Source: an uncultured Gammaproteobacteria bacterium
GTDB lineage: Bacteria; Cyanobacteriota; Vampirovibrionia; Gastranaerophilales; Gastranaerophilaceae
Direction of reading: 5' to 3'
NCBI GenBank assembly: GCA_964570895.1
Contig: CAZMZD010000006.1
Span: 11,447-75,446 of the forward strand
Length of the DNA: 64,000 nt
Under the pieces are notes generated by a model. It saw only the letters and a list, made by a program, of their open reading frames with translations. It did no database searches and was not told where the DNA came from. A program made the position numbers and the translations under genes. Positions 25,969 through 43,022 of the stretch are shown here, piece after piece (the stretch's first letter is position 1; each line of letters starts with the position of its first letter).

Positions 25969-26568
25969 CTAACGTTTTGGCCAGCTGGAGTTTTTTGTAC
26001 AATTTCTCATATATTCAAAAAATGGCTCTTTAAGATTATATCCGTCGCCATGCTTGAATATTTCCCCATCTTCTAAATAGTAGTATGTTCCATAACGATT
26101 ATCTTTGGAAAATATCGAACTACACATGTGTCCACTCATAAATTCCTTCCCATCTTTATAAAACGTTCCTTCAAGCTCCCTGCCAAGAGTGCTTCTATAT
26201 GTCACTTCGTCTATTATCCCGTTTGTGAAAACTTTGGTTTCCCTTCTATTAAAACCGATTGCGCCAACGTTAGATTTAATTTTCCCTGTGAATTTTTCGC
26301 CCGTTTCTTTATTCACAAGAACATTATCTCTAAATTCCAAACCCTTTTTTGCAATGTTTTCTTCAAATGTGCTTTTAGATAAAACACCCGCGACAATTGC
26401 AAGCGCTCCTGCCGCTCCTATAATCAACGGCATATATTTGCGGATTTTCTTGCGTATTTCTGATTTTTCCGCTCTTTTTTGGTTTTCTTGAGGTGCAGTA
26501 TTTTGAACCTTTTTAAAAGCCACACGGGACACGCTTTTGTTAACATATTTTATTGGCTGAATTTTCAT
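25969..26568 (-). CDS. Hypothetical membrane-anchored protein (one TM helix; weak MORN/YwqK-like repeats)
   Basis: 199 aa. N-terminus MKIQPIKYVNKSVSRVAFKK, TM helix YMPLIIGAAGALAIVAGVLS, then G-x-aromatic repeat-like segments (FTGKIKSN, GTFYKDGKEF, YYYLEDGEIFKHGDGYN). Its start overlaps the upstream gene by 4 nt (ATGA). Confidence 0.4.
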   Translation of the reverse strand: MKIQPIKYVNKSVSRVAFKKVQNTAPQENQKRAEKSEIRKKIRKYMPLIIGAAGALAIVAGVLSKSTFEENIAKKGLEFRDNVLVNKETGEKFTGKIKSNVGAIGFNRRETKVFTNGIIDEVTYRSTLGRELEGTFYKDGKEFMSGHMCSSIFSKDNRYGTYYYLEDGEIFKHGDGYNLKEPFFEYMRNCTKNSSWPKR

Positions 26569-27752
26569 CGTTCTATTTTATTCCTTAACATTAAGTCGTT
26601 TCTTTCGTCGAGTTTTTTAGTTGTTTCTTTATTAAAATCAAATAAACTATCTGCTAATTCAGCAAAAATTGACCTTTTGGAAACTTTGTTTTTTATTTTT
26701 TCAACAAATAAAGCTTTTTCTATATCACAATTCCTTCGAAAATGATTTTCAGCACTTTCTAACGTGCTATACAAAAACGTTTTTTGAGGTGCTTTTTCTT
26801 TTATTGTTTCAACAACAGGGAGCACTTCTTTTGCTTGAATTGTTTCAAGATATTCTGCAACATCATTTGCAACTTCTTCCGCTTTTTTGATATCGCCATT
26901 CCACACTTGTTGAGTGTAATAATCAAGATAAGACTGCGGAGTAGAGTATCTATATTGCCATCTGTTGCTGAAAATGTTAGCATAGTCTAAATCTTTTAGT
27001 GAACCTGTGAATTTATCATTACTATCAAGATTATTGCAGACATCTTTTGTTATTCTCTCTGCCATAAATTCATTCATATTTTCTGCAGAATATCTGCCAA
27101 GCTTGCATTTTGCTATAAGCTGCCCTATTGAAGTTGGTATTTTTGTTTTATTTAATTTGGACATCACATCTGCGTTACCATTGATATATAAATTTTTAAA
27201 ATGTGCACTATGTCCAAATTCATGAACGAATAATTGCAAATGGTTGGCAGTTGGGCTCCACCATTTTAATTTTTCTTTAATTTCTTGCAGTTGTAATTTT
27301 AATTCTGAATCAAAAAAATCATAATCGGAATTAAACCAAATTTCATTGCTGTCACCATATTTATAATGCTGATGCGCACCAAGCCAATTTTGTGTTTTCG
27401 GATCAGTGAATTTTTCTTTAAAAGAAGTAAATCCAACTATTTTTGGCAAACTGCTTGAACCAAACAATTCTTTAAACAATTCAACTGTTTTTTGTGTGCA
27501 TTTTGCAACAAGGTCATTGTCTTTAAAATCACATTTCATACCTTCTTCAAGCAAAACTTTTTCAATCCGCCCAGCTTCTAATAAAAGGTTTGAAGTGAAT
27601 GCAATTTTTGAACGATTATTTTCATATTTATCCGCAAAATCCAAAACATCTTGTGAAATAGGTTTTGGTGATTTTTCATACACAACCTTGCTTGCAAAAC
27701 TCAAATTGTTTCTTTTTGTAACATTAACACCTGAAATTAGATTTACTTTCAT
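26565..27752 (-). CDS. Putative zinc metallopeptidase (HExxH)
   Basis: 395 aa. The only clear motif is LFVHEFGHSAHF (HExxH). There is no signal peptide. The N-terminus is MKVNLISGVNVTKRNNLSFASK. Confidence 0.45.
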   Translation of the reverse strand: MKVNLISGVNVTKRNNLSFASKVVYEKSPKPISQDVLDFADKYENNRSKIAFTSNLLLEAGRIEKVLLEEGMKCDFKDNDLVAKCTQKTVELFKELFGSSSLPKIVGFTSFKEKFTDPKTQNWLGAHQHYKYGDSNEIWFNSDYDFFDSELKLQLQEIKEKLKWWSPTANHLQLFVHEFGHSAHFKNLYINGNADVMSKLNKTKIPTSIGQLIAKCKLGRYSAENMNEFMAERITKDVCNNLDSNDKFTGSLKDLDYANIFSNRWQYRYSTPQSYLDYYTQQVWNGDIKKAEEVANDVAEYLETIQAKEVLPVVETIKEKAPQKTFLYSTLESAENHFRRNCDIEKALFVEKIKNKVSKRSIFAELADSLFDFNKETTKKLDERNDLMLRNKIER

Positions 27753-27831
27753 TTTTACTTCTCTTTATTTGATACCTTCAAACGGCTCTACAAAACATGA
27801 AAATAACATCTTTTGCTAGTTGCATAAAATA

Positions 27832-27846
27832 AATGTTACAAATTTT
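27832..27846. promoter_or_regulatory. Near-palindrome AAATGTTACAAATTT (candidate operator)
   Basis: Lies in the divergent intergenic region between the HExxH operon and the sigma28-driven small ORFs. Confidence 0.4.
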
Positions 27847-27926
27847 TATATCAAAAAATCAAAAAGACTTGAGAGTGCATAATGCAAAACACATCACAAA
27901 ACCGCCAAATGAGCAATTTCACTAAG

Positions 27927-27940
27927 AAATGTAACAATTT
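27927..27940. promoter_or_regulatory. Near-palindrome AAATGTAACAATTT (candidate operator)
   Basis: Second copy in the same divergent intergenic region. Confidence 0.4.
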
Positions 27941-27962
27941 GTAAAAAAAGCTGAAAAAATCA

Positions 27963-27989
27963 TTAAGAATAATTTTGAAATGCCGATTA
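27963..27989 (+). promoter_or_regulatory. Sigma28-type promoter candidate P1
   Basis: TTAA-N15-GCCGATTA. The -10 element matches GCCGATAA at 7/8. Confidence 0.45.
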
Positions 27990-28014
27990 GTTATTTGTAA
28001 GGGATTTAAGGCAG

Positions 28015-28041
28015 TTTAATTTTCTTACAAAAGGTCGATAA
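28015..28041 (+). promoter_or_regulatory. Sigma28-type promoter candidate P2
   Basis: TTTA-N15-GTCGATAA. The -10 element matches at 7/8. Confidence 0.4.
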
Positions 28042-28121
28042 GAAGAAAAAATAGCTAACAAGGCAATTTTTATTCTCTCAATGTTTTTATTAATGTAGGG
28101 TTTCCTACAGAAGAGGTTACC

Positions 28122-28394
28122 TTGATACAACAAAATATCAGAATTTACGCAAAAAGGCTCAGAAACTACTTGAGTTTTACACGCAATTATCTGTTAAGAA
28201 AAAACCCAATTATGATGCTTGCCAACGAAATTGAGGTAATTCTTAAAGACGTTTTGTTGTTGAACAGAAAAAAGAAAATGGCTCATTACAGGCTTTCTTA
28301 TCAAATTCACAAATTGAATGAAATGGAAACGTTGATTGCAAAAAACAATGAGCACACTTTCTTAAAAGGTAAAAAGTTTAATACATTGAGATAA
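28122..28394 (+). CDS. Hypothetical small basic protein
   Basis: 90 aa with a TTG start, preceded by agaagagg at 5-nt spacing. No recognisable domain, and the coding status is uncertain. Confidence 0.3.
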   Translation: MIQQNIRIYAKRLRNYLSFTRNYLLRKNPIMMLANEIEVILKDVLLLNRKKKMAHYRLSYQIHKLNEMETLIAKNNEHTFLKGKKFNTLR

Positions 28395-28397
28395 AAA

Positions 28398-28724
28398 ATG
28401 GGCATTCTAACATCAACTTACGGGCTAACATATCAAATTAACGAAAGAGCGAATTACGAGAACAAAATCAGTGATTGCGAACAAAAAGCAATGAATTTGT
28501 CGAACACGATTAATGAACTCGGAACGGCGCAAAGCGGTTTGCCAAAAGACAGCCCTGAACTAAAAGCCTTGGAAGCAAGGGTTAAAAGGCTCCAAGTGCT
28601 CGAAACAGAATTGGAACAACAAAAAACAAAATATCAAAATAAATTGCAAATAGTTGAAAAAGAAATTCAAAAACACCAACAAGATTACACAAATTCTGTT
28701 AACAGATTTTACGGGCAAGGTTAA
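28398..28724 (+). CDS. Hypothetical coiled-coil protein
   Basis: 108 aa with heptad-rich KALEARVKRLQVLETELEQQKTKYQNKLQIVEKEIQKHQ. It starts 3 nt after the previous ORF and lies downstream of the sigma28-type promoters. Confidence 0.4.
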   Translation: MGILTSTYGLTYQINERANYENKISDCEQKAMNLSNTINELGTAQSGLPKDSPELKALEARVKRLQVLETELEQQKTKYQNKLQIVEKEIQKHQQDYTNSVNRFYGQG

Positions 28725-28741
28725 TAAATTACATTAAATAG

Positions 28742-28770
28742 TTGGTCAAAATCTTCTTATGGTATATAAT
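28742..28770 (+). promoter_or_regulatory. Sigma70-type promoter candidate for the 28800/slt unit
   Basis: TTGGTC-N17-TATAAT. Confidence 0.5.
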
Positions 28771-28799
28771 AATAATATTGGAAGATTTAGGATATTTTT

Positions 28800-29231
28800 A
28801 TGAAAAAATTATTTTTAATTGCATGCTCTTTTTTAATTATGCCTTGCGCTTTTGCGTATATTACAACGAACGAACTTTCGGATGTTGAATATTTAAAAGG
28901 CAAAGGCTACTCTGAAGCTTTGCTTAAGACTATGGATTTACAAAAAGATAACCAAAAAGGCCCGCACGGAACATACGAAAGAGTTTATCAAACAAACAGA
29001 TACGTAAAACCTTCCGGTTCTTTCTCGAAACAAACTAAAGAACATCTTATATACGTCTACGATAAAGCAAAATTGTATCTTGACCCAATTCAAGATGACG
29101 ATTTGTTTGGAAACCGCGATGCGTCATTCACAAACAAACCAATCAACGAAATACCAACTCGCAGAGAGGCTCCGGCTAAGGTTGAAGAACCAACAGAAAG
29201 TTTAAACCAAGATACCGTAGAAAATCTATAA
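28800..29231 (+). CDS. Hypothetical exported protein
   Basis: 143 aa with N-terminal signal peptide MKKLFLIACSFLIMPCAFA. No other motif was recognised. Confidence 0.5.
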   Translation: MKKLFLIACSFLIMPCAFAYITTNELSDVEYLKGKGYSEALLKTMDLQKDNQKGPHGTYERVYQTNRYVKPSGSFSKQTKEHLIYVYDKAKLYLDPIQDDDLFGNRDASFTNKPINEIPTRREAPAKVEEPTESLNQDTVENL

Positions 29232-29237
29232 AACAAA

Positions 29238-31157
29238 ATGAACGAAAGAATATTCTTAAATTCAATTATCGGTTTATTCATTGGAATTAGCCTGCTTTTT
29301 TCGCTTACATTTTTTAAAAGAAATGCAAGCGAGAGCGACTATAAATTTTTTGGACAAGGGGTTGAGTTTTCAAAGCAACAAGATTATCAAAACGCGTATT
29401 TCAATTTTGGTAAAGTTAACAAATTTTCTAAGCTTTACCCGCTTGCAATATACAGACAAGCGCTTTGCGCAAAAGAACTAAACGACACAAAAACTGCAAC
29501 AAAAAAATATAAGAAATTTTTAAGCACATCATCAGATATTAATTTCCGCCCTGCAGCGCTGTGGGAACTTGCGGAAATATACAGAAAAAACGATAAAATT
29601 CACGCAAGCAAAAAAATCTATCAAAGAATTATCAAGAAAAACCCTGAAACTGACTTTGCGATAGCTTCAAAATATCGCATGGCAGAATATACAAAAAATA
29701 TAAAATTAAGAAAAAAATATATGGCAGAATATCTTGAAGAAGCCCCGATTGGGAGATTTTCAAAGCCATGTGCCGAAAAATTTGCAACATATAATCTAGA
29801 CGAGGGCGAAAAATATATTCTTGCAAATTCTTATTACACTCATAAAGATTATAAAAGCGCATTAAAAACTTTAAGTGGCACAAAAGAAGCAAAAAATCTG
29901 CTTCTTGCGGCTAAATGCTACGGTGCCCTTTCAGACAAAGAAAATGCAAAAAAATATTATGTTTCATATCTTAAAAACATAAATGAAGATACAGAGGGTA
30001 TAAACGACGCAATCACAAGCTACATTAAAGTTTCAGGGCAAACAAAAGCGCAAGCGCTTGGAAATTTAGCACAAATTGTGCACAACAAACGCTCAAGAGC
30101 AGGAATTTTATTTAACTTGGCGCAAATTTCAAACGGAAAAACCGCACAAGATTTGTATACGCAAGTTTTGAATTTAACGCCGAGCGGATATTTTGCGCCG
30201 GAGAGTTTAGCCGAGATTTTTTGGTATCACTATAAAAAGAAAAATTACACAAAAGCGCTATCCGTTGCAAACAACCACATGCAAAATTTCCCTAATAAAA
30301 ACTCAAGCGCAAAAATTATATATTTCGCAGGAAAAATTCACCTCGCAAAAAATAACAAAAGAAACGCGGAAAAATATTTCTCATATATCCTAACAAACTA
30401 TCCTAACGGATATTATGCTTACAGAGCGCACGAAATGCTTGGCAAAAAGAAAAAACCCTTTTCTATTCAGCCTTTTAGAAAACTTCCGCCGGAAGAAAAC
30501 TTCACCCTCAAAACAAACTCTTATTTTATAGATGTCCTCTGCGATTTTGAAGATTTTAACACACTCGACACACTAAAAATAAAGGATGATTTTTTAAAGA
30601 GTTATCTTGCCTATAAAAAAGGCTCTGTGCAATATTCTATCTTGCTTGCAAAGGGCGCATTAGACAAAGAAGGTGAAAATTACCGCAAAAACCCCAATTG
30701 GGCAAAGCTTGCATACCCGATTTATTATCAATTCTACATCAACGAAAGTGGCGAAAAATATAGCATAAACCCACATTTTATTATTTCTTTAATAAAAGAA
30801 GAAAGCCATTTCAATAAAGACGCTGTAAGCTCCGCAGGCGCCGCAGGTTTAATGCAAATTATGCCAAGAACTGCAAGTTTTATGGAAGACAGAGCAATCA
30901 CTTCAAAAGATTTGCAAAATGCAGAATATAACATTCATGTAGGCACTAAATATATTGATTCCATCATTGATAGTTTTGGAAACGAGATGTTTGCGGTCGC
31001 TTCATATAACGCTGGGGTTGGAAATGTCAGAAAATGGCAACAGCAAATTTACGACGGCGATTTAGATGATTTTGTTGAAGATATACCATTTCTTGAAACT
31101 AAAGTTTATGTAAAAAAAGTGTTCACAAGTTTTTGGAACTATTCAAGGTTATATTAA
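29238..31157 (+). CDS. slt: Soluble lytic murein transglycosylase (Slt70-like: helical/TPR-like repeats plus SLT domain)
   Basis: 639 aa. The C-terminal SLT catalytic region is present (LIKEESHFNKDAVSSAGAAGLMQIMPRTA ... ASYNAGVGNVRKW). The long helical N-terminal part has TPR-like repeats. Confidence 0.85.
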   Translation: MNERIFLNSIIGLFIGISLLFSLTFFKRNASESDYKFFGQGVEFSKQQDYQNAYFNFGKVNKFSKLYPLAIYRQALCAKELNDTKTATKKYKKFLSTSSDINFRPAALWELAEIYRKNDKIHASKKIYQRIIKKNPETDFAIASKYRMAEYTKNIKLRKKYMAEYLEEAPIGRFSKPCAEKFATYNLDEGEKYILANSYYTHKDYKSALKTLSGTKEAKNLLLAAKCYGALSDKENAKKYYVSYLKNINEDTEGINDAITSYIKVSGQTKAQALGNLAQIVHNKRSRAGILFNLAQISNGKTAQDLYTQVLNLTPSGYFAPESLAEIFWYHYKKKNYTKALSVANNHMQNFPNKNSSAKIIYFAGKIHLAKNNKRNAEKYFSYILTNYPNGYYAYRAHEMLGKKKKPFSIQPFRKLPPEENFTLKTNSYFIDVLCDFEDFNTLDTLKIKDDFLKSYLAYKKGSVQYSILLAKGALDKEGENYRKNPNWAKLAYPIYYQFYINESGEKYSINPHFIISLIKEESHFNKDAVSSAGAAGLMQIMPRTASFMEDRAITSKDLQNAEYNIHVGTKYIDSIIDSFGNEMFAVASYNAGVGNVRKWQQQIYDGDLDDFVEDIPFLETKVYVKKVFTSFWNYSRLY

Positions 31158-31202
31158 AAAACTCTTGCCATTAAAAACCTTTAGTTTAAAATAAGGGTAA
31201 GT

Positions 31203-32201
31203 ATGAATATTTCAATTACACCGAGTGATATCTTTATGGTTTTGGGGTTTACCCTTTCCCTTTACTCTTGTGTTTCAAATGATGTTATTCAAACACTCGG
31301 GACTTTTTTAAGCTCCACTAAAGATAAACCCGTCTGGCTGATTTGGCTGTTTGCAAGCACAGTGCTTGTTGTGACATTGCTTAGCGGCTGGTATTTATCA
31401 GGCGGAGCCGATATGGCATTTGGCAGGTTAGATAGAATACCTCCTCTTGATAGGCTCTATTGGTGGCATATAATTCCGCCTCTTGCGCTAATTTATATGA
31501 CAAAAAAAGGCTTGCCTGTTGCAACTGCCTTCATTATCTTAACCGTTTTTTCGCCGTCAACGGTCATTGGGCTTATGGTAATGAAATCTTTGGTTGGATA
31601 TTTTTCAGCATTTGCTTGCGCTTTTGTTATTTATTTCTTTATCTCAAGAAAAATTGAAAAGCATTTTCTATATTCAAAAGGCGAACGTATTCCAACGGGC
31701 TGGATAGTTGCAAAATGGATTTCAACAGTGTTTCTTTGGTCGTCTTGGCTTATGCAAGACGCCGCCGTTTTATACGTTTACCTCCCAAGGCATTTGAACA
31801 TTTGGCAAGTTATTGTTTCGCTCATTGCCGCATGCGGACTTCTATACATTATTTGCTATAAAAGAGGGGGCGAAATTCAAAACATCTTGAAGCTTAAAAC
31901 AAACACTCAAGACACCCGCTCTGCAACAATTATTGACATTGTTTTTGCTTCAATATTGTTCTTCTTCCAACATGTAAATAATATCCCGATGTCAACAACT
32001 TGGGTGTTCCTTGGGGTTCTTGCAGGAAGAGAAATTGCAATGTATAACAGAATACGTTTTGAAACCGAGAAAAAAGTATACAAACACATATTTAAAGACT
32101 TCTCGAAAGCCTCTATGGGGCTTGTGTTGTCAATCGTAGTCGCAATGGTTGTAACACACATTCCAATTATTGAAAATTATATTAAAAATTTCTTTAAATA
32201 A
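31203..32201 (+). CDS. Polytopic membrane protein, distantly PiT/PHO4-like
   Basis: 332 aa with about 8 hydrophobic helices. SNDVIQTLGTFLSS and MSTTWVFLGVLAGREI loosely recall the duplicated PiT motifs (GANDVAN..GT, PVSTTH...G...G). Confidence 0.4.
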   Translation: MNISITPSDIFMVLGFTLSLYSCVSNDVIQTLGTFLSSTKDKPVWLIWLFASTVLVVTLLSGWYLSGGADMAFGRLDRIPPLDRLYWWHIIPPLALIYMTKKGLPVATAFIILTVFSPSTVIGLMVMKSLVGYFSAFACAFVIYFFISRKIEKHFLYSKGERIPTGWIVAKWISTVFLWSSWLMQDAAVLYVYLPRHLNIWQVIVSLIAACGLLYIICYKRGGEIQNILKLKTNTQDTRSATIIDIVFASILFFFQHVNNIPMSTTWVFLGVLAGREIAMYNRIRFETEKKVYKHIFKDFSKASMGLVLSIVVAMVVTHIPIIENYIKNFFK

Positions 32202-32203
32202 AA

Positions 32204-32851
32204 TTACGCTTGAAATGATTTTTTAGTTGGGTCTTGCTCTTTTGGTTTTCTAAATGAAGAAATTATATTATATAAAAGTGCAATCATTATACCCGTTCTT
32301 ACGCCTGACGCGATTAAATTAGGGCGATTCATAGATTTTGTTGCCTTTTTAGCTTTTTTAATCAAATCTGACTCTGAAGCATTTTTAATCAGCTCTTCCG
32401 CTTTTTCTTTTGCCAATTTGCAAGCATTATCATAAGATTTTTTAAACTCTTCCAATTTTTCAGGATTTGGCAATTTTTTAAGTTCTTCTTTTCCTGCTGC
32501 AATAGCGTCTATAATATCTTGCCCCTTATTTGGAATAGCTTCTTTGCTTGCAATATCTTTAGTTATTATATCTGCCTTCAGCGCATTATTATACAAGGTA
32601 TGTTTATCAAAAAAATCCTGCGCAATTGATTTAAGAGAAGAATTACTGCCTTCCACTCTTGCTTCATCAAGCACTTTTTCAATAGCCGGCTTGCATGGCA
32701 TAAAACTAACAGCCGTGCCGATTGCACCGCCAACAACAGCACCACTTGCTGCTGTTAATGCTGTTCCTAAAAGGCTTGCCTTAGCGCTTGCTTTTGCTTC
32801 TGCTTTTTCTTGTGGTGTGGCTTTTGCGCCAAAAGATACTGTCATACCCAT
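32204..32851 (-). CDS. Hypothetical membrane protein (glycine-zipper helix, helical K/E-rich middle, C-terminal TM)
   Basis: 215 aa with N-terminus MGMTVSFGAKA, then LLGTALTAASGAVVGGAIGTAVSF. The C-terminal TM helix is GVRTGIMIALLYNIISSF. Confidence 0.4.
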   Translation of the reverse strand: MGMTVSFGAKATPQEKAEAKASAKASLLGTALTAASGAVVGGAIGTAVSFMPCKPAIEKVLDEARVEGSNSSLKSIAQDFFDKHTLYNNALKADIITKDIASKEAIPNKGQDIIDAIAAGKEELKKLPNPEKLEEFKKSYDNACKLAKEKAEELIKNASESDLIKKAKKATKSMNRPNLIASGVRTGIMIALLYNIISSFRKPKEQDPTKKSFQA

Positions 32852-32958
32852 AAAATATTTCCTTCCACTTAAATAAAAACTTTTTTTATAAAAAAATTGC
32901 CAAAGAAAATTAAAATTTGTATAATTTCTTATAATTTATTGTCATTTGAAAGGAAAAA

Positions 32959-33660: not shown

Positions 33661-33701
33661 CTTTGCGCGCAAGCTAGTGCATAATAATATTAAAAAACCT
33701 C

Positions 33702-33727: not shown

Positions 33728-33762
33728 TCGGTATATTTTGTAACTAACTTAAGGTTCAAATA

Positions 33763-36282: not shown

Positions 36283-36291
36283 TTTTTATTT

Positions 36292-36312
36292 GTCAGGCAT
36301 TGCCTGATCTAC
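36292..36312. repeat. REP-like palindrome ending in CTAC
   Basis: gtcaggcattgcctgatctac. Confidence 0.65.
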
Positions 36313-36341
36313 GGGTTGCGGGCTTATTTTGACGTAATTAA

Positions 36342-36363
36342 GGTGCGTATAAACGCACCCTAC
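36342..36363. repeat. Palindrome ggtgcgtataaacgcacc followed by CTAC
   Basis: ggtgcgtataaacgcaccctac. Confidence 0.6.
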
Positions 36364-36388
36364 GGCTCTTGTTATTATCAAAACATAC

Positions 36389-36693
36389 ATAGAATTTTTC
36401 AAAATTTTTATCACTAAACGGAAATTGCGGAGAGGTTTTGCGGTCACAGCTTGGATTGTAACAGTTAGAGCATATTTTTGTTAAATAGCTATTCGCAAAA
36501 GCTCGACTGCGATTTCTGAGATAAAAATTTGAAAAATGGCAAGAGCTAAACAAGAGCCGATGTTTCTTTCTTTTTGTTTCATTTTTCTTTCTTTGCGTTA
36601 CGGCGCTTGAGTGTCAAAGAAAGAAAAATGAAAGAACAAAAAATAAACGCTATGTTGCATTAATTGGCAAGATTCTGAAACAAGTTCAGAATG
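36389..36693 (+). repeat. Copy 2 of the ~305-bp dispersed intergenic repeat
   Basis: Aligns to 3843-4147 (see copy 1). Confidence 0.85.
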
Positions 36694-36732
36694 ACTTTTT
36701 CATTTATATACCCAAAAACAAAACAAAAAACG

Positions 36733-36775
36733 AAAGACGCACAGCAAAGCCACGCGTCCTTCTTTTGGGAGAGAG
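36733..36775 (-). terminator. Probable flagellin terminator, about 120-160 nt downstream of the stop
   Basis: The minus strand reads aaggacgcgtggctttgctgtgcgtctttcgttttttgtttt. The stem is gacgc/gcgtc, followed by a T-rich tail. The loop is large, so confidence is moderate. Confidence 0.4.
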
Positions 36776-36893
36776 TTCTCTATATTTCAGCTTAAAATAT
36801 CGCACGTTGCCACAGGGGGCACAGAAGTGGCACCACAAGACATAATAAGCTCAAGTATGCAAGTAAGTAGTTTGTTTATCCAATTAATTGGGA

Positions 36894-37826
36894 TTAGCCG
36901 ATTAACTGAATTGCAAGTGATGGTAATTGGTTAGCTTGAGCCAACACCGCAGTTGCAGTTTGTTCAAGAATTTGGTATTTCACCATATCTGAGCTTGCTT
37001 CCGCAATATCAACATCGGTAATTCTTGATTTCGCTGTTTCAAGGTTTTCTACGGTTGTCGCCAAGTTGTCATAGGTCGCATCCATACGGTTTGTATAGGC
37101 ACCTAATAAACCTCTTGCACTTGATATTGTGTTAATTGAGTATTGGACATCTTCCATATATTTACGGAATGCGTCGCCAAATGCTGCGTCAGCTGAGCCA
37201 ACATAAGCTTCAATTGCTGCTTCATCGCCAAATTTATCACTGTTTGGATCTAAACAATCAGGCAGTTTCAAGCCTATGCCACCTGCGTCAACTGTTGTTT
37301 TACCTAAAGCAGACAAGTTACAATCTGTTAATGATTTTTTGACATCGATTGTGTTTGTTTCTTTATCTGTTCCTGCGCCGATTTGGATAATTACTTGTTC
37401 CAATTCGCCGTCAAGAAGGTTTCGACCGTTGTAGTTTACACTGTTCGCTGTGTTTTCGATGTCGATTAATCTTTGATCAATTTCAACCATAATTGATCTA
37501 CGAGCTTCTAAATCGTTGATATCAGAAGCGCCTTGAACCAACAGTTCGTTGATTCTTTGTAAGTGGTCGCCTACGGTAATCATACCGCCTTCTGCGATTT
37601 GCACGAAGTTTTTACCATCTTCGATGTTGTCCATCGCTTTGTTTGAACCACTAATTTGGAATTTAAGTCTTTCGGCGATTGCAAGACCTGCAGCGTCATC
37701 TCCGGCAACATTAATTCTGTAACCTGTAGAAAGCTGGGTCATCGCCTTTTCTAAACTTTTAACGTTTGAGTTAAGCCTATTCTGGGCGATTAACGCAGAA
37801 ACGTTAGTGTTTACACGGATTGCCAT
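36894..37826 (-). CDS. fliC: Flagellin
   Basis: 310 aa. The N-terminus MAIRVNTNVSALIAQNRLN...LSTGYRINVAGDDAAGLAIAERL and the C-terminus ..ITDVDIAEASSDMVKYQILEQTATAVLAQANQLPSLAIQLIG form the canonical D0/D1 flagellin ends. Confidence 0.92.
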   Translation of the reverse strand: MAIRVNTNVSALIAQNRLNSNVKSLEKAMTQLSTGYRINVAGDDAAGLAIAERLKFQISGSNKAMDNIEDGKNFVQIAEGGMITVGDHLQRINELLVQGASDINDLEARRSIMVEIDQRLIDIENTANSVNYNGRNLLDGELEQVIIQIGAGTDKETNTIDVKKSLTDCNLSALGKTTVDAGGIGLKLPDCLDPNSDKFGDEAAIEAYVGSADAAFGDAFRKYMEDVQYSINTISSARGLLGAYTNRMDATYDNLATTVENLETAKSRITDVDIAEASSDMVKYQILEQTATAVLAQANQLPSLAIQLIG

Positions 37827-37834
37827 TTTTCTCT

Positions 37835-37863
37835 CTCCTGTTTCTTATTTTTACTTACAGGAG
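37835..37863 (-). promoter_or_regulatory. Shine-Dalgarno-sequestering hairpin in the flagellin leader
   Basis: The mRNA reads cuccugu-N15-acaggag, where acaggag is the RBS 9 nt before the AUG. The stem is a perfect 7 bp. Confidence 0.5.
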
Positions 37864-37940
37864 GTATAACGAAATTATCTTTTACAACTTTAGTTATAAA
37901 AAAACCAACCTAAGTTGTAGAAAACGGGCAAAACCCTGTC

Positions 37941-37967
37941 ATAGCGGCGTTTTTCAAGCTGTAATTA
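37941..37967 (-). promoter_or_regulatory. Sigma28-type promoter candidate for flagellin
   Basis: The minus strand reads TAAT-N15-GCCGCTAT against the Bacillus sigmaD-type TAAA-N15-GCCGATAT. It predicts a ~105-nt leader. Confidence 0.5.
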
Positions 37968-38019
37968 AACTTGAAGAATATCCTCCATATGGTGTAGAAA
38001 ATGGGAAATTTTGTGTAAT

Positions 38020-40401
38020 TTAAGGGGTGTTTGAGCCATTTTCAGCACTTAAATTTGCAAGCCTTCTTTTTTCATTTTGAAGCTTACTTAAATTTTGAGC
38101 CATGTTAGAAATTTCATATTCAAGAGCAGATATTGTGTCATCTATGTTCAAATTTGCAAGCATATCTTTTGTGGTTTGTTCTTCAGTTTTTAATTCTTCA
38201 AGCTTTTCTCTTGTGTTGTTTTTCAAAATATTGGCTTCTGCTTGTTCTATTTGTTGTTGCAATTTAGTTATTTGTTTATCTAAATTAGCACCGGACCCAG
38301 CAGCAGATTTTGCTTGTTTAATTTGTGCCTGAAGCTCTTTTCTTTTATCTTGCAAGGATAAAAGCTTAATTTCAGGGTTCAAATTCATCTCTGCAATTTT
38401 TGCTTCAACTGAACTTAGGGCTTCAGAGAGAACAAAATCATATTTGCTTGCATTATTGCTTGAAACGTTTGAAGCTTGGAATTTCTTAAACATTGTTTTC
38501 ATTTTGGCAAGTTTATCAGTTAATTCCTTATACTTTGTGACATTCTTTTTATCTGAAATTGAAATGTTGCCAAAGTTTTTCACAATGTCGTCGTTTAAGC
38601 GGATAATGCCGGACATAAGTGTTTCTTCGTATTCTTTTGTTTCTTTTGTTTTTTGAACGCATTCTTCGCTTTGCAAACGGCGGATCTTATCTGCCTTATC
38701 TTTTAGTTCAGAATATTGCCTCAAGCTTTCTGCGCTCATGCGTGCTGAAGGTTTTGTTTTTGAAAGCTCTGCAATTTCACGGTCAAGCGCTTCAAGCTCG
38801 CATGTGAGGTCTTGGGCAGTTGTTGTGTTTTTTTGCGCCTCCGCTTTTTTATCAAACAAACTTTGAAGGCGAAGTTTTAAAGTGTCTAAATTTTCAACCT
38901 CTGCTTCAAGTTTAACAATTTCAGAAGCGATAGTTTCCGGCATTCTGATTGATTTTTTCGAGCTTTCAATTTCTTCATTTAAAGATTTTATCTGTGCGTG
39001 GCATTTTATTTCTTCTTCTTTTGCAATATTTGCGCGAGCAGTAAGCTCAGAGTCGCGCTCTGCTTCAATAGCAAGCTGTCTGCTTTTCATTCTTTTTGGA
39101 ATTTCTTCAAGACGCTCTTTTTTCTTGGCACGTCTATCTTGTTGAGTCTTAATTTCTGAATATTCTTTTCTTAACCTTTTGACAGCTTGTTTTAAACCCG
39201 ATAAAGTTTCTTCTTGAGAAGATAATTTTTTATATGCGTTAAATGTAGTGTCTTGTTCGTATTGCTCTGATTTAGCTTTTAATTCATCTAATTTATTTCT
39301 TTTTGCTTCAAGCGATTTTTCCAATTTCAAAATTCTTGCGTTAATTCTTTTTTCGACATTTTCTTTGGGAGCTTCTTCTTCCACGTCAAATTTTTTCTTT
39401 TCTCTTGCAACTTCTTCACCAAGCTCTTTGGAAAATGTTTCTAAAATTTCTTTTGGGTAAGTTGCATATTCTTCACCTAATTCACCGGTTTGTATTTTTG
39501 CTTCAACCTCTTGCAAGTATTTATCAAAATTCACTTTGAAATTAGGTCTTTGCATAATCCATTCGGAATATGGCATATTTGAGCGCCTAGAATTGCAGTC
39601 TGCGCACATTACTATATAGTTTGAAGTGTCGTTCGCGCCGCCTTTTGAAGCTGGGGTGACATGCTCTGTGGAGGCAAGAGCGCCGGAGAATAATCTGCGC
39701 GCAATGTCTTCATTTGATTTTTTTGAAAACGAAGCATAAAAAGCACTTTCAGAGTTTGATGAAGCAGGGATTTTCTCAGCCATCTCAACTAAAAAATTCG
39801 CTTCTTCCCCTTGCTCTTCAGGGGGAATCAACCCTTTTAATTTTTCAATAAAATCTTGTCTTCTAAAATATTTTTCGTTTTCATAATCAGGATTTGCGAT
39901 TAATTCTTTTTGCTCTTTAATAAATTTCTTTATATTATCTTTTGTTTCTTGTTTAAAATTCTTAGAATTTCTCTCAACTGAATCAAGCACTTTGACTTGT
40001 GCGTCCACAAGCTCGGACATGTATTTTGAGCTTAAAGACCTCATGATGGCTTTTAAATCTTTGTTTTTGTCGCTAAGTGCTTCAAAGATTATGTTTTTAA
40101 TTATTTTATTTTCAATCGCACGGTAGTATGAAGATTTTTGCTGAAGTTCATAAACAAGCTCCGGCCCTTTTAAATCTTTCATTTTTCTCACGTACGTATC
40201 AAGTTGCTTTGTTTGTATTGTTTTTTCGCCACACGAAGCGCAAGGCATTGCATAAATGTTTCTCGGTGCAAAACTGTCTTTTGAGCAAGCAAAACCCGTG
40301 AATGAAAATGGGTTTGAGAAATTATTTCCATAGCTTTTAACGCCTTGTTGTTTAGGCTTAGGCTGTTTAAAACTATAAAAATTTATTGGTTTTATTATCA
40401 T
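38020..40401 (-). CDS. HNH-motif nuclease with ~500-aa C-terminal coiled coil
   Basis: 793 aa. The HNH signature STEHVTPASKGGANDTSNYIVMCADCNSRRSNMPYSEW lies at aa 244-281, with an isolated CASCGEK at aa 54-60. From about aa 290 to the end the sequence is K/E/L/Q heptad-rich. The start overlaps the helicase stop (TAATG). Confidence 0.65.
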   Translation of the reverse strand: MIIKPINFYSFKQPKPKQQGVKSYGNNFSNPFSFTGFACSKDSFAPRNIYAMPCASCGEKTIQTKQLDTYVRKMKDLKGPELVYELQQKSSYYRAIENKIIKNIIFEALSDKNKDLKAIMRSLSSKYMSELVDAQVKVLDSVERNSKNFKQETKDNIKKFIKEQKELIANPDYENEKYFRRQDFIEKLKGLIPPEEQGEEANFLVEMAEKIPASSNSESAFYASFSKKSNEDIARRLFSGALASTEHVTPASKGGANDTSNYIVMCADCNSRRSNMPYSEWIMQRPNFKVNFDKYLQEVEAKIQTGELGEEYATYPKEILETFSKELGEEVAREKKKFDVEEEAPKENVEKRINARILKLEKSLEAKRNKLDELKAKSEQYEQDTTFNAYKKLSSQEETLSGLKQAVKRLRKEYSEIKTQQDRRAKKKERLEEIPKRMKSRQLAIEAERDSELTARANIAKEEEIKCHAQIKSLNEEIESSKKSIRMPETIASEIVKLEAEVENLDTLKLRLQSLFDKKAEAQKNTTTAQDLTCELEALDREIAELSKTKPSARMSAESLRQYSELKDKADKIRRLQSEECVQKTKETKEYEETLMSGIIRLNDDIVKNFGNISISDKKNVTKYKELTDKLAKMKTMFKKFQASNVSSNNASKYDFVLSEALSSVEAKIAEMNLNPEIKLLSLQDKRKELQAQIKQAKSAAGSGANLDKQITKLQQQIEQAEANILKNNTREKLEELKTEEQTTKDMLANLNIDDTISALEYEISNMAQNLSKLQNEKRRLANLSAENGSNTP

Positions 40402-43022
40402 TATGCTACCGAGGTGCCATCATACAATGGCGGTTTTTTAAGTTTTTCTACCGCTTCTTGCGCTGTGCATATTAAATATTCATAATAATATTTATCGTCA
40501 TCATTTGTTGAGTTTTCAAGCGCATATTCTGAAATGTTTATAATTTGTTTCAAAACATCGACTGATTGGCTCAAAACAGAATAAACATCGCCTTCAAAAA
40601 TGTGTTTGAACGGGTTATATCTAAAGCCCAAATATTCTTTTTCATTTTTTCTGACAGTTGGGTCTTTCAAGATATTTTTAAAGTTGTTTGCAGAATTGTC
40701 ATTATATTCAGTTTGGTTGAGCCAAGAATATGCAATGTAGCTTGAGAAAATATCTATGTCGTTTGTTTCGTCTGCAATTCTATTTTCTTTTTCAGCTCTT
40801 TGCAATCTTTCGCATAAATCTTCTGCATCACACAAAGTGTCTAGAATGTCATATTTGCCTTCTTCTTCGCAATAATAAACAAACAAGTCATTTATTAATT
40901 TCTTTGTTTCTTCATTTTCAAAGTTTACGCCTGAATCAATAAGCCCAGCGGCAAACGCAGCAAGCTCAGACGGGCTCAACCTGCCAAGTTTTTTATCTGC
41001 AATCATTTTCACAAGCACAAGTTCATTGTAGCCGTGTGCTTTTGTGAGCAAATTGCCCATAGGAGTAGTTTTATAGCCCCTTGGCGTTTTTTCAAGGAAC
41101 TTGAATTTTTCAAGCACATGCTCATATTTGTTAATTTTATTATTTAAGCGATTTTTTGATTTTATCGGGTTTGCTTTTTGCGCTTGATACATATACAAAG
41201 ACTTGTCTAGAAGATAATCTAAGCCTTCTTTATCGTCGCTTTGCATATAATATGAAGCAAGGAAATTATAGCTTGTTGAATATTTACTTGTTATCGCATT
41301 TGGATTTGAGAAAATATATTTCTTCGCAATTTCTTTATCACTGTTTGATAAGTTATAAAGAATAACGTCGCCGATTTTATCTATACCGCGGCGCCCAGCG
41401 CGACCTGACATTTGTTGGAATTCGTTAACTGTTATTGGAGAATAGCCATCAAGCGCTTTGTCGTCCGGCTTATCCAATTGCGTGATTACAACTGACCTAG
41501 CAGGCATATTAATACCTGCAGATAATGTGCTCGTTGCAAACACAACTTTTAACAATTTTTTAGAGAACAACTCTTCAACAAGTTTCTTGTATCCAGGCAT
41601 TAACCCCGCATGGTGCGAAGCAATACCTGACATAAGATCGTGTTCATTAAAATGTTTTCCTAAGTATACATTTTTTTCTTTATATTCATGGATAATTTTT
41701 TGAATTTGCTCTTTTTCCTCTGGAGTTGTGAGGTTAAGACCTTCGTCAATAAGATTTTTTACATTCATATCGCAAGCATTTCTTGAAAACTTAAATATGA
41801 TTGCAGGAAGTTTTCTCGCGTCGTCTAAATCATGAATTAGAGTTTTGAAGTCTTCTTGAGGCCTTTTTTGATTTTTAGAAGATAGTACATTGCGGTTTAA
41901 TTCGCGAGAATCGTGGTCTAAAAGAAGTTGGGTCACTTCGCGCGCAACATGTTCTTTAAGTGCGAATTGTTCTTGAATTGTTTTTGAAAAATCAGTGTGT
42001 TTAACATGTTCTTCTTCAAACAATGAGAACAGTTTTTCTTGTGCTTCAGCAGATGTTATATCATTTTTATCCGCCAAAATTTCAATCGCACGTTTTTCTT
42101 TATCCGTGAAAGCACCTTCTTGCGCTCTTTCTTTCATTGAGGCAATATTTATGCTGCCCTTGACTATTTCTTTGAAAGGCTCTTTTTCACCTTTGGCATA
42201 TTCTTGGAACACAAGCGGAACAAACCTTTCTTTGTGGCTTGCTTCAATCAAATTTGTTTTCTTTTTTGTAATTGAATCAATCCAAGAAGAAAATTCTTGC
42301 GCGTTGCCGACTGTTGCGCTCAATGGCAAAATTTGCATATTTTGAGGAGTGAACACAATTGATTCTTCCCAAATTTTTCCTCTTTCATGTTCATCTATAT
42401 AGTGCGCTTCGTCAAACACAACTGTGTTTACATCTTTAAAACGGCTTTTTGTAGGGTCTGAAAATTCATTCAGCGCCATGTTTCTATATATTTCAGTTGT
42501 CATAATGAGAACCGGCGCGTCTTTTTTAAGTTTAATGTCCCCTGTTAAAAGACCGACATTTTCTTCGCCATATATTTTGCAAAATTCTCTGTATTTATCG
42601 TTTGATAAGGCTTTTAGAGGGGTTGTGTAATATGTTTTTTTGCCTTCTTTTAAATTTTTTGTAATTACATAATTTGCAATTGCTGTTTTGCCAACACCTG
42701 TTGGAGCGATACAAACTGTGTTGTCACCATCGTATAAGCTTTTTGCCGAGCGAAGCTGCGTGTCATCCGGCATAGCTTGGAATTTTCTGCCTTTAGAGTC
42801 TTCTAAAATCGGCAATTGGAAATAATTTTGTTCGATTGTTTCATCAAAACTAGGCTCTGGCGCGCCTTTAAACAAAATTTGCTGATAATAACTTGCAGGA
42901 TAGCTTGTTATTTGCGAATTTTGCACGTTTTGTGAGCTTTGTTTAATGGGGTTTGAAGAATTGTTCGTTAGTTTTGAAACGCCTGTAAACGGCTTAAAAT
43001 TAGTTACTTTGTTTATCAACAT
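40401..43022 (-). CDS. Ski2/HelY-like DExH-box SF2 helicase
   Basis: 873 aa with motifs APTGVGKT (I), TPLKALSNDK (Ia), VFDEAHYI (II), LSATVGN (III), HHAGLMPGYK, FATSTLSAGINMPARSVV (V) and QMSGRAGRRGID (VI). The C-terminal helical region (TPMGNLLTKAHGYNELVLVKMI...LSPSELAAFAAGLI) resembles the DSHCT-type end of Ski2-like helicases. Confidence 0.85.
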   Translation of the reverse strand: MLINKVTNFKPFTGVSKLTNNSSNPIKQSSQNVQNSQITSYPASYYQQILFKGAPEPSFDETIEQNYFQLPILEDSKGRKFQAMPDDTQLRSAKSLYDGDNTVCIAPTGVGKTAIANYVITKNLKEGKKTYYTTPLKALSNDKYREFCKIYGEENVGLLTGDIKLKKDAPVLIMTTEIYRNMALNEFSDPTKSRFKDVNTVVFDEAHYIDEHERGKIWEESIVFTPQNMQILPLSATVGNAQEFSSWIDSITKKKTNLIEASHKERFVPLVFQEYAKGEKEPFKEIVKGSINIASMKERAQEGAFTDKEKRAIEILADKNDITSAEAQEKLFSLFEEEHVKHTDFSKTIQEQFALKEHVAREVTQLLLDHDSRELNRNVLSSKNQKRPQEDFKTLIHDLDDARKLPAIIFKFSRNACDMNVKNLIDEGLNLTTPEEKEQIQKIIHEYKEKNVYLGKHFNEHDLMSGIASHHAGLMPGYKKLVEELFSKKLLKVVFATSTLSAGINMPARSVVITQLDKPDDKALDGYSPITVNEFQQMSGRAGRRGIDKIGDVILYNLSNSDKEIAKKYIFSNPNAITSKYSTSYNFLASYYMQSDDKEGLDYLLDKSLYMYQAQKANPIKSKNRLNNKINKYEHVLEKFKFLEKTPRGYKTTPMGNLLTKAHGYNELVLVKMIADKKLGRLSPSELAAFAAGLIDSGVNFENEETKKLINDLFVYYCEEEGKYDILDTLCDAEDLCERLQRAEKENRIADETNDIDIFSSYIAYSWLNQTEYNDNSANNFKNILKDPTVRKNEKEYLGFRYNPFKHIFEGDVYSVLSQSVDVLKQIINISEYALENSTNDDDKYYYEYLICTAQEAVEKLKKPPLYDGTSVA

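Follow-up and report, generated by a model that had tools for sequence, protein, structure and literature searches.

What do four otherwise unrelated proteins gain by beginning in the same way? The question is raised by a 64-kb window (the whole stretch of DNA analysed here), for which a preliminary description had claimed four leader-bearing ORFs in two overlapping pairs, with a fifth protein as a possible further member. All five ORFs and their N-termini were found at the positions claimed:

25969-26568, minus strand: 199-aa ORF, N-terminus MKIQPIKYVNKSVSRVAFKK
26565-27752, minus strand: 395-aa ORF, N-terminus MKVNLISGVNVTKRNNLSFASK ... KIAFTSN
32204-32851, minus strand: 215-aa ORF (fifth protein), N-terminus MGMTVSFGAK
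38020-40401, minus strand: 793-aa ORF, N-terminus MIIKPINFYSFKQ ... NPFSFTGFA
40401-43022, minus strand: 873-aa ORF, N-terminus MLINKVTNFKPFTGV ... ILFKGAP

The 199-aa and 395-aa ORFs overlap by 4 nt (ATGA) and the 793-aa and 873-aa ORFs by 1 nt, and both gene pairs are translationally coupled. The proteins behind the leaders are indeed unrelated, as had been proposed. The 793-aa protein carries an HNH nuclease motif (residues 243-275; Pfam HNH_5 and HNH) followed by ~500 residues of coiled coil, and the 873-aa protein, in which Pfam recognises DEAD, Helicase_C and DSHCT domains, is a Hel308/Ski2-like member of the DEAD-box helicases, scored by NCBIfam as a Hel308-type helicase, under the family cut-offs. 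The 395-aa protein is zincin-like (HEFGHSAH...NEFMAER) and belongs to an unnamed family with no match in Pfam, NCBIfam or PDB. The 199-aa protein likewise had no match in Pfam, NCBIfam or PDB sequences; its leader is followed by a Gly/Ala-rich hydrophobic segment (residues 46-64) and a C-terminal antiparallel beta-meander domain, for which fold comparison returned weak beta-meander matches only (OspA-like, DUF1975-like, LolA-like).

On comparison of their sequences, the four N-termini are copies of a portable N-terminal tag that is widespread in Vampirovibrionia. The very first residues form a cap, M-[KR]-I-[NS]-P-[IV]-x-N, followed by a variable spacer of 0 to ~55 residues, rich in N/Q/S/T/P and almost devoid of acidic residues, and then by one to three F-boxes, in which a hydrophobic residue or N precedes [SNT]-F-[KQR]-[GAS]. 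Both elements of the motif first proposed were thereby kept in refined form, the cap as M-[KR..]-I-[NQS]-[PS]-[IV]-x-N and the second element as hydrophobic/N-[SNT]-F-[KQR..]-[GAS]. The leaders in the window are:

26506-26568, minus strand: leader of the 199-aa protein, with cap MKIQPIK, a polar spacer and F-box RVAFKK (F18)
27591-27752, minus strand: leader of the 395-aa protein, with cap MKVNLIS, an extra F-box NLSFAS (F19) and the conserved F-box KIAFTS (F52)
40288-40401, minus strand: leader of the 793-aa protein, with cap MIIKPIN and three F-boxes, YSFKQ (F11), NNFSNP (F28) and FSFTGF (F34)
42858-43022, minus strand: leader of the 873-aa helicase, with cap MLINKVT and three F-boxes, TNFKP (F9), one at the position equivalent to NNFSNP, and the conserved ILFKGA (F51)

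For the 395-aa protein and the helicase, the leaders originally described are real, although the conserved boxes are IAFTS (F52) rather than LSFAS, and ILFKG (F51) rather than PFTG. Whole leaders range from 3 to ~60 residues, stand at the N-terminus in every case and are predicted to be disordered (pLDDT <50), as in residues 1-25 of the 395-aa protein (pLDDT <50) and residues 1-35 of the 199-aa protein (AF2 pLDDT ~33). The last F-box lies at a family-specific fixed distance ahead of the first element of the folded cargo; the F52 box of the 395-aa protein directly precedes the folded domain. The median position of the Phe was 13 in a 5'-nucleotidase family (range 4-29) and 15.5 in 54 other leaders, and it fell at or before residue 19 in 67% of leaders, in a sample in which the scan pattern had to some extent favoured short leaders. 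Apparently functional family members start with MISFKG or MKISFKG.

Scoring was performed with a position matrix built solely from leader families non-homologous to the proteins of the window. The four proteins scored 17.7 (199-aa), 16.1 (873-aa helicase), 12.6 (395-aa) and 7.9 (793-aa), the next-best window protein 0.3, and the highest of 708 control proteins from other phyla 5.0, giving 4/60 window proteins versus 0/708 controls (Fisher p = 3e-5). Ile/Val was strongly preferred at leader positions 3 and 6 in the matrix and was present in 4/4 window proteins. Membership of the fifth protein was not supported: it has an F-box-like VSFGA at residue 7, lacks a cap and scored -1.7, a value reached by 1.1% of control proteins. 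It contains a Gly/Ala-rich hydrophobic segment, with only weak HlyE and pore-domain matches.

N-termini of this kind, rich in K/N/I, could arise with no shared function where codon usage is AT-rich and selection keeps the mRNA unstructured at the start of genes. Genome GC is 32-40%, MK-/MKI- starts are common in such genomes, and a looser leader classifier fired on 2.3% of control proteins, the regular expression of the preliminary description being loose as well. This explanation, which we consider barely credible, is contradicted by composition. Acidic residues (D+E) accounted for 1.4% of leaders versus 9.6% of ordinary N-termini from the same lineage, and N+Q for 31% versus 9%, so that the leaders lie far from what composition would predict; Pro reached 7%. 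Control AT-rich loci (Dialister, Peptoniphilus, Ruminococcus) gave no high matrix scores. Nor does it account for the invariance of the Phe despite synonymous codon variation, or for a distribution in which the tag also occurs in a Vampirovibrionales contig of 46% GC and the in-frame scan matches listed are almost confined to one class. Given its presence in that 46% GC genome, base composition is no explanation for the tag.

Selection on the tag acts at the protein level and not at the RNA level. Across families the Phe is invariant at 25-30% identity, while its own and neighbouring codons vary synonymously, and F-box codons differ synonymously between orthologues. Leaders were retained in orthologues of all four proteins. 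Members of the 199-aa family at 39-57% identity kept the cap and the Phe, with a linker variable in sequence and length, and the pairing of this gene with the HExxH gene was kept in L001-L006 and L008-L010. Among 52 aligned members of the HExxH family, M1 and F52 were at least 90% invariant and so about as strictly conserved as the zinc-ligand and catalytic residues (H177, E178, H181 and E228), and the leader was found on nearly all 90 family representatives (50% clustering). L011 and L012 kept the 793-aa leader, its codons differing synonymously (TTC/TTT, TCA/TCT), and YPASYYQQILFKG of the helicase leader was retained in L011 and L013, also with synonymous changes. With few exceptions, the 120 best helicase homologues (identity 33-95%, length 740-1200 aa) start M-I-[TS]-P-[IV]-x-N-I-[ST]-F ... 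[IL]-[SN]-F-[KT]-G, and helicase-partner genes start MRINFITFNN...QNFKGFDC (L179) and MQINLQTFNN...ISFKGNDYC (L180). Orthologues of the HNH and helicase genes are paired in L011, L013, L179 and L180. In the 5'-nucleotidase-like family the tag was present in 100/102 homologues, down to 27% identity. Shine-Dalgarno sites preceded the leader ATG as frequently as they preceded other genes, which supports the start codons. The preliminary description had named lack of enrichment, lack of conservation and wrong starts as grounds for abandoning the motif; all three were tested and none was observed. The tag is almost certainly real and recognised in trans.

We further investigated its occurrence across one genome per species (185,579 species), using the pattern M[KR]INP[IV]-x2-12-F[KQ]G. 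The scan returned 92 stretches, and the following figures rest on the 80 matches listed. Among these, 18/20 Melainabacteria-labelled matches were in frame at the start of real ORFs (100-545 aa), against no more than 5 of the remaining 60 that lay in frame within an ORF of at least 60 aa (p about 3e-12); two of the latter (L122 and L126) are evidently unlabelled or mislabelled Melainabacteria. Among the matches listed, in-frame occurrences of the coded motif at real gene starts therefore come almost exclusively from Melainabacteria. Within the class Vampirovibrionia the tag is spread over Gastranaerophilales and at least one Vampirovibrionales genome. Only 2-3 of 319 genes flanking proS in 20 Gastranaerophilales genomes carried it; the tag marks accessory genes rather than the proteome at large. 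In the literature searched we found no description of this tag, which heads very many unrelated proteins in gut relatives of cyanobacteria.

Established N-terminal signals differ from it. A Sec signal peptide was rejected, as originally claimed, for want of a hydrophobic h-region behind a short positive n-region and ahead of an AxA-type cleavage site: hydrophobic residues made up 24% of leaders versus 40% of ordinary N-termini, with stretches of 9 of 11 hydrophobic residues left out by the leader classifier, and the loci also contain true signal peptides, which are of another appearance. The claim that the leaders are not Tat signals was also borne out, with no RR pair (as in S/T-R-R-x-F-L-K) or h-region in any of the four. 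A type IV prepilin leader (G|F-T-L-[IL]-E and a hydrophobic helix) was rejected because neither a Glu at +5 nor a hydrophobic helix follows the F-box; the lineage does have genuine pilin-like N-termini, and these differ (MRKSSAFTLAEVLITLAIIGVVAA in L018 and L019).

A single machine or receptor, shared throughout the lineage, would read the tag in trans, beginning at the free N-terminus, with the invariant Phe probably fitting a hydrophobic pocket. The most likely purpose of the tag would be non-Sec sorting, leading to export or to delivery to a particular site, and we tentatively favour such a role, as somewhat less than an even prospect. In other bacteria the 5'-nucleotidase/metallophosphatase family is mostly extracytoplasmic, and the family here has no signal peptide and carries the tag where one would sit. 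Orphans and toxin-like enzymes (HNH, zincin and a weak ADP-ribosyltransferase match) make up many of the cargoes and occur in clusters and in paralogue families that have expanded. The leader, itself neither a Sec nor a Tat signal, is shared by otherwise unrelated cargo, and to that extent the original interpretation is supported; the helicase-HNH pair fits an effector role poorly, since this pair is conserved across the order and lies in relatives among housekeeping genes (clpX, tig, gyrA, dapB). The suggested clustering near a secretion, encapsulin or contractile-system locus was not seen beside leader genes in the loci examined. Other cargo also speaks against export: one tagged protein is a CheR-type methyltransferase, like the helicase of an enzyme type usually at work in the cytoplasm, and some tagged proteins have a hydrophobic anchor right behind the tag (199-aa family, L003, L182), which Sec/YidC would insert regardless.

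The F-box is placed where a disordered leader (0-55 residues) meets the folded domain, at a fixed distance per family, and in this resembles a processing site. The tag could accordingly be a cleavable propeptide or pro-degron, cut at the F-box by a lineage-specific endopeptidase, a reading to which we give clearly less weight than to sorting. A cut after the Phe would free a mature enzyme, as Prp does for bL27, in a zymogen-like control; a cut before it would expose an N-terminal Phe-Lys and lead to the timed destruction of dangerous enzymes. Phe-Lys is a classical ClpS/ClpAP N-degron, and both the acid-free tag and the basic residue following the Phe suit ClpS recognition. Residues at +2 are small (G/A/S), leader length seems irrelevant (MISFKG is on a par with 50-residue leaders in one family), and latency or a short life is plausible for cargoes of which many are nucleases, peptidases and toxin-like enzymes. 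There is also precedent for a Phe-ended tag copied onto unrelated proteins: Wall et al. are said to have reported in 2015 that the Prp-cleaved bL27 propeptide is copied by capsid and scaffold proteins of staphylococcal phage 80alpha. Like the tag, that propeptide is a short, portable and lineage-restricted N-terminal extension ending in a conserved Phe and then small or basic residues. However, it has the fixed-length site (K/L)LNLQFF|AS, against a variable leader with [SN]-F-[KQ]-G, and it belongs to other taxa (Bacillota, Fusobacteria and others). A bL27-like Prp propeptide, with a fixed leader of ~9 residues ending in L-x-[FLY]-F | A/G/S, was rejected on leader length (3 to ~60 residues), K/Q/R after the Phe and the lack of an FF/LQ context; neither a prp gene nor a long bL27 was found in the 64-kb window, and phage contigs gave no real matches for the tag. 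Against processing in general, several leaders have two or three F-boxes, odd for a single site, the cap is conserved at the extreme N-terminus with no role in the model, and the HExxH family is too fast-evolving and paralogue-rich to be a housekeeping leader peptidase. Sorting could take place with or without cleavage at the F-box.

Repeated boxes also suggest avidity, and the N/Q-rich spacer with its aromatic 'stickers' resembles low-complexity interaction regions. The tag might then be a cytoplasmic docking or assembly motif involving no translocation: its F-boxes, by binding a hub protein or each other, would bring soluble enzymes with the tag together with the cytoplasmic tails of membrane proteins bearing it, at a pole, envelope site or condensate. 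Helicase/HNH and CheR-type enzymes are normally cytoplasmic; order-wide tagged enzymes acting on cytoplasmic substrates include the Hel308-like helicase, its HNH partner and the CheR-like methyltransferase, and the first two, presumably interacting, both have related three-box leaders. We nonetheless think docking improbable. Docking would not require an N-terminal position, which the tag occupies in every case, with a conserved extreme cap, and the F-box motif was ~5-fold rarer in internal 40-residue windows; the cargo includes a 5'-nucleotidase-type family, expected outside the cytoplasm, and no candidate hub was found.

Two other kinds of targeting signal invite comparison. Injectisome type III effector signals are compositional, with no conserved sequence motif. 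They share with the tag an N-terminal, disordered, acid-poor and Ser/Thr/Asn/Ile/Pro-rich character and diverse enzyme cargo in accessory regions, but the Phe box of the tag is invariant and its cap conserved; injectisome genes were not seen, nor does a chaperone-binding region follow the tag. Plastid transit peptides are acid-free, hydroxylated and variable in length, with Phe-containing FGLK-type motifs. As in the tag, an acid-free polar N-terminal extension of variable length with a short Phe/Gly/Lys motif is borne by many ordinary enzymes, and the tag belongs to the sister lineage of cyanobacteria. Transit peptides, however, are a eukaryotic invention read by TOC/TIC; the likeness lies only in composition and layout and implies no homologous receptor. 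Vampirovibrio lives in association with prey or partner cells. A bolder version, also improbable, is that the tag serves as address label for a protein-handling pathway of Vampirovibrionia that is non-Sec and undescribed. In it a dedicated receptor would read the free N-terminus and Phe box of a substantial minority of the proteome, and would either translocate the cargo to the outside or to a partner or prey cell, or feed it to a processing/N-degron system. Were this so, the cargo would include helicases, nucleases and metabolic enzymes of 'cytoplasmic' type, and a transit-peptide-like system would exist in the closest non-photosynthetic relatives of the plastid ancestor.

For export proper, the candidate gate would be the flagellar type III export apparatus, the only one visible in this genome, which encodes FliN, FliL and flagellins. 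[quoted passage not shown] 2022, PMC8983047). The tag shares the extreme N-terminal position, disorder, small hydrophobic residues at 3-6, within the first ~10 residues, plus a Phe motif, and the lack of a hydrophobic core or twin arginine. It differs in spacing, with usually 5-12 residues, and sometimes 0, between its elements, versus at least 19 in Salmonella; with a median Phe position of 13-16, the analogy fails the spacing rule. Its box, [SN]-F-[KQ]-[GA], has Gly/Ala at +2 and no general hydrophobic residue at +4, and it occurs, with up to three boxes, on hundreds of non-flagellar proteins, including helicases and anchored proteins. In relatives' loci examined, leader genes and flagellar genes were not linked, and the leaders matched no Pfam model, FliE included. 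The flagellar route is unlikely. Within the HExxH family, residue F+4 was hydrophobic in 38/63 members (60%) versus 14 at +3 (22%) and 19 at +5 (30%), which suggests a GRM-like pattern in that family; in independent leaders it was hydrophobic in 19/36, no more often than at +3 or +5. Separately, FliE of another phylum was seen to start MKINPV...SGFGEML, with the same two-part layout.

The preliminary description attributed a common leader to four open reading frames (ORFs) of the window and added a fifth; all five are on the minus strand and lie exactly at the positions it claimed:

25969-26568, minus strand: 199-aa protein (protein 1), no Pfam match
26565-27752, minus strand: 395-aa HEFGH protein (HExxH protein), no Pfam match; ATGA overlap with the 199-aa gene
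32204-32851, minus strand: 215-aa protein starting MGMTVSFGAK
38020-40401, minus strand: 793-aa protein, Pfam HNH
40401-43022, minus strand: 873-aa helicase, Pfam DEAD/Helicase_C/DSHCT; one-base overlap with the 793-aa gene

Many more unrelated ORFs near their orthologues shared this type of start (e.g. MMLNNVKNISFQGY, MKINAVNGTNQPAFQK, MQIQKTSTNFQGI, MNLAVNPIVNQSNQATFKGK). Leaders were scored using a position matrix of two blocks (residues 2-8; Phe +/-3) with penalties for acidic residues and signal-peptide-like stretches, trained only on families non-homologous to any window protein. Four window proteins scored 17.7, 16.1, 12.6 and 7.9, the fifth-ranked scored 0.3, and the maximum among 708 control proteins, drawn from 46 loci in other phyla with AT-rich Dialister, Peptoniphilus and Ruminococcus among them, was 5.0. 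The number of tagged genes in the window (4 in 60) was significantly greater than in the controls (Fisher, p = 3e-5). The 215-aa protein scored -1.7 and its proposed membership was unsupported.

The tag opened with a cap (M-[KR]-I-[NS]-P-[IV]-x-N). A spacer followed, devoid of acidic residues, rich in N/Q/S/T/P and 0 to about 55 residues long, and then came between one and three F-boxes, the last of which was anchored to the cargo domain. The shortest tags had cap and box fused into about 12 residues (MKINPIFINFKG). Compared with ordinary N-termini of the lineage, leaders were poor in D+E (1.4 % vs 9.6 %) and hydrophobic residues (24 % vs 40 %) and rich in N+Q (31 % vs 9 %) and P (7 % vs 2.5 %). 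AlphaFold2 models gave pLDDT < 50 for the leader and > 90 for the downstream domains. Bare leaders had no match in Pfam at E values up to 10, not even to FliE. An N-glycosylation sequon (N-x-S/T-F) was rejected, being absent from many boxes (QNFKG, PAFQK, RVAFKK).

The tag was kept in all four window families, such that the leader of protein 1 and of the HExxH, helicase and HNH proteins was conserved in their homologues. Members of the protein 1 family (39-57 % identity) started with MRINPINTTCTFRSN, MRINPIISTSAFKAS, MITNIVDNINFRDS and MLRISPINNINFSS, and their linker between tag and hydrophobic segment was unalignable. Nearly all of the 90 representatives of the HExxH family (50 % clustering) started M-[KRQ]-[IV]-[NS]. 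In an alignment of 52 members, M1 and F52 reached at least 90 % invariance, as did H177/E178/H181 and E228, the presumed zinc ligands; this Phe lay 27-31 or 38 residues upstream of the core motif F-[VI]-A-E-C, and its distance from the N-terminus ranged from 4 to 61 residues. The best 120 helicase homologues had 33-95 % identity and lengths of 740-1200 aa, and included paralogues of several size classes. Almost all of them started M-I-[TS]-P-[IV]-x-N-I-[ST]-F and had [IL]-[SN]-F-[KT]-G as a second box, some 15 residues upstream of the conserved motif F-x-x-T-[IL]-x-x-N-Y-F-Q-L-P. Helicase and HNH leaders were alike box for box (xNFKP/xSFKx, NNFSNP, x[LS]FKG). Between orthologues at about 71 % identity, codon changes within boxes were synonymous (TTT/TTC, TCA/TCT, GGC/GGA, TTG/TTA); therefore, selection acts on the peptide. 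AAGGAG-type Shine-Dalgarno sequences preceded the leader ATG as often as the start of other genes (59 % vs 54 %), and the leader start codons were accordingly sound.

A similar pattern was found in a lineage-specific 5'-nucleotidase/metallophosphatase family (L134 protein, 1005-2642, and 102 homologues, P0009-P0110), where the tag stands directly before the first beta strand with no signal peptide. The box [NST]-F-[KR]-[GS]-A was retained in 100/102 homologues, down to 27 % identity, five residues upstream of the first strand (..LNINAFSDTHG), and the shortest leaders were MISFKG and MKISFKG. As practically all of the 102 homologues found were tagged, they provided no contrast with Sec signal peptides. 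The location of the F-box at a domain border, and the fact that leader length makes no difference, would be explained if the tag were a processing site or pro-degron acting at the box. We consider this rather unlikely, as it leaves both the conserved cap and the presence of several boxes per leader unexplained. The HExxH protein itself was rejected as a leader peptidase: its family is fast-evolving, has many paralogues and is itself tagged.

We further investigated the distribution of the tag by scanning one genome each for 185,579 species with a DNA pattern encoding M-[KR]-I-N-P-[IV], 2-12 residues and F-[KQ]-G. The scan yielded 92 stretches, 80 of them listed, against about 40 matches expected by chance (an estimate assuming uniform base composition). 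Among those listed, 20 were labelled Melainabacteria, Gastranaerophilales, Vampirovibrio or 'Cyanobacteria bacterium SIG28', and 18 of these 20 were in frame, opening real ORFs of 100-545 aa, whereas nearly all of the remaining 60 were out of frame or in few-codon ORFs (p about 3e-12). The exceptions among the 60 included L122, syntenic with a Gastranaerophilales locus (L082), and L126, a 28 % GC locus assigned by its label to an uncultured Clostridium sp., which encodes a 241-aa tagged ADP-ribosyltransferase-like protein (6432-7157) with a near-identical counterpart in the Gastranaerophilales loci L090 and L150. Such similarity suggests that the contig was mis-binned or that the gene was transferred very recently. 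Three further exceptions were no more than expected by chance. The relatives found with the HExxH, HNH and ProRS proteins were all labelled Gastranaerophilales or Melainabacteria, which places the window in a gut-dwelling member of the Vampirovibrionia. Six matches were found among 2.9 million viral contigs searched with the same DNA pattern, none convincing, giving no sign of phages copying the tag.

A Vampirovibrionales contig of 46 % GC (L141) carried three tagged genes in 8 kb (521-1366, 1728-2249 and 5420-5923) with [QRN]-F-S-G as their box variant. The tag thus extends beyond the Gastranaerophilales and beyond AT-rich genomes, so AT-richness is not its cause. The possibility that the similarity arose from base or residue composition alone, a concern of the preliminary description, is excluded: the leader exceeds compositional expectation in its matrix separation, its composition contrast and this 46 % GC bearer. 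Together, the tests agree on a real tag that occurs throughout the order.

As had been proposed, the leader was common to otherwise unrelated cargo. This was mostly orphans and included, besides the two gene pairs of the window, a CheR-type methyltransferase, the 5'-nucleotidase-like family, a weak ADP-ribosyltransferase-like protein, proteins with a Gly/Ala-rich hydrophobic segment directly after the tag, and small proteins of 87-170 aa. Tagged genes were often clustered (4/6 genes in L153; 4-5/10 in L120). In proS flanks 2-3/319 genes were tagged, the same as for decoys, which shows that the tag avoids housekeeping neighbourhoods, as judged from these flanks rather than as a genome-wide rate.

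The HExxH protein and its partner formed a conserved two-gene module in nine loci (L001-L006, L008-L010). The former carries a zincin-like motif (HEFGHSAH...NEFMAER); the latter is small, combines a hydrophobic segment with a beta-meander domain, and occurs as three tandem copies in L010. Neither had a relative in Pfam, NCBIfam or PDB using sequence profiles, and AlphaFold2 with Foldseek yielded no more than generic matches, to zincins for the former and to single-layer beta-meanders for the latter. Judging from sequence, the module could possibly be a toxin/immunity or protease/regulator pair. The charge-bias topology of the anchored family was inconsistent among its members.

The helicase, nearest to Hel308-type helicases in NCBIfam but below family cut-offs, and the HNH/long-coiled-coil protein also formed a conserved pair (L011, L013, L179 10001-14860 and L180 10001-15455), translationally coupled and kept across the Gastranaerophilales among housekeeping genes. 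The helicase family has expanded into several size classes between 740 and 1200 aa, and in the shorter ones the helicase has other partners, such as a 1294-aa UvrD-like protein in L181. Cargo of this cytoplasmic type, together with the repetition of boxes, would suit a cytoplasmic docking motif. The strictly N-terminal position of the tag counts against such a motif, and we regard it as improbable.

Our tentative reading is that the tag may be a sorting or export signal for the proteins that bear it. The tag is strictly N-terminal with a conserved extreme N-terminus, the leader is predicted to be disordered and lacks acidic residues, and the cargo is accessory, fast-evolving and enzyme-rich, all of which would fit such a signal. 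The 5'-nucleotidase/metallophosphatase family is usually extracytoplasmic elsewhere, and the 5'-nucleotidase-like family here bears the tag where a signal peptide would be expected. Three kinds of cargo argue against export in general: the helicase/HNH pair, which is conserved throughout the order, the enzyme resembling CheR, and the anchored proteins. Some other function for the tag accounts for the remaining probability.

Among known layouts, the two-part signal of early flagellar type III substrates comes closest to that of the tag. The FliE of a Krumholzibacteriota locus (L154, about 280-570; PF02049, E = 5e-8), a genuine early substrate of another phylum and a chance match in the scan, starts MKINPV with SGFGEML 24 residues on, the same cap-plus-Phe layout as the tag. 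[quoted passage not shown] The Phe of the tag, in contrast, has a median position of 13-16 and can be as early as residue 4, which conflicts with this spacing rule; unlike in the flagellar motif, a hydrophobic residue at Phe +4 is favoured in the HExxH family but is not general. We therefore did not class the tag as a flagellar two-part signal. The window contains FliN, FliL, one flagellin and one flagellin-like gene. The flagellin adjacency of the helicase/HNH pair, seen in the window and close relatives (L011, L012), is not general, because elsewhere the pair sits beside housekeeping genes (clpX-clpP-tig, dapB, gyrA or dnaX) and not flagellar genes. A sigma-28 promoter (TAAA-N13-17-CCGATA) had no match upstream of either pair, and its window-wide count was at chance. 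By analogy, the flagellar gate would be the most visible candidate route only, and export through it appears unlikely. One protein within the flagellar neighbourhood (23043-24113), rich in Gln/Pro and carrying HEAT repeats at its C-terminus, has a tag-like start (MQAINNNSYFNQG) scoring -1.9, below the threshold.

Searches of full-text papers on Gastranaerophilales/Melainabacteria with a motif or secretion signal turned up nothing on the tag. This analysis adds that the scan signal is restricted to one class, that the F-box is anchored to the cargo, that leaders can be very short, that the helicase family is tagged almost throughout and that the flagellar spacing rule fails. Melainabacteria are common, uncultured gut bacteria and, among non-photosynthetic lineages, the closest relatives of cyanobacteria; if several per cent of genes in the class bear a tag that no database model or searchable paper describes, this would be a major gap in the account of their cell biology. 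An export signal would define their secretome/effector set and might show the flagellar export gate in a new role, and a processing site or degron would be a new large-scale regulatory layer. The tag also provides a ready cargo list (orphan enzymes, toxin-like proteins, the helicase-nuclease pair and a novel zincin family) and, in a single Phe, a simple experimental handle, and knowing it would keep gene callers from trimming or mis-starting these N-termini.

Two further loci types were observed. L155 (2021-3986) encodes tandem paralogues (329 and 324 aa) that share a domain and differ in their caps (MAMKLSFTPQNFKG, MKINPITNNNSFKG); the domain, with no Pfam/NCBIfam match, ends in GGLHCMS, reminiscent of guanidino-group-modifying enzymes. 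Pilin-like proteins in L018 (13930-14484) and L019 (16027-16572) start MRKSSAFTLAEVLITLAIIGVVAA, in which the residue preceding the Phe of the prepilin cleavage motif is Ala instead of Gly.
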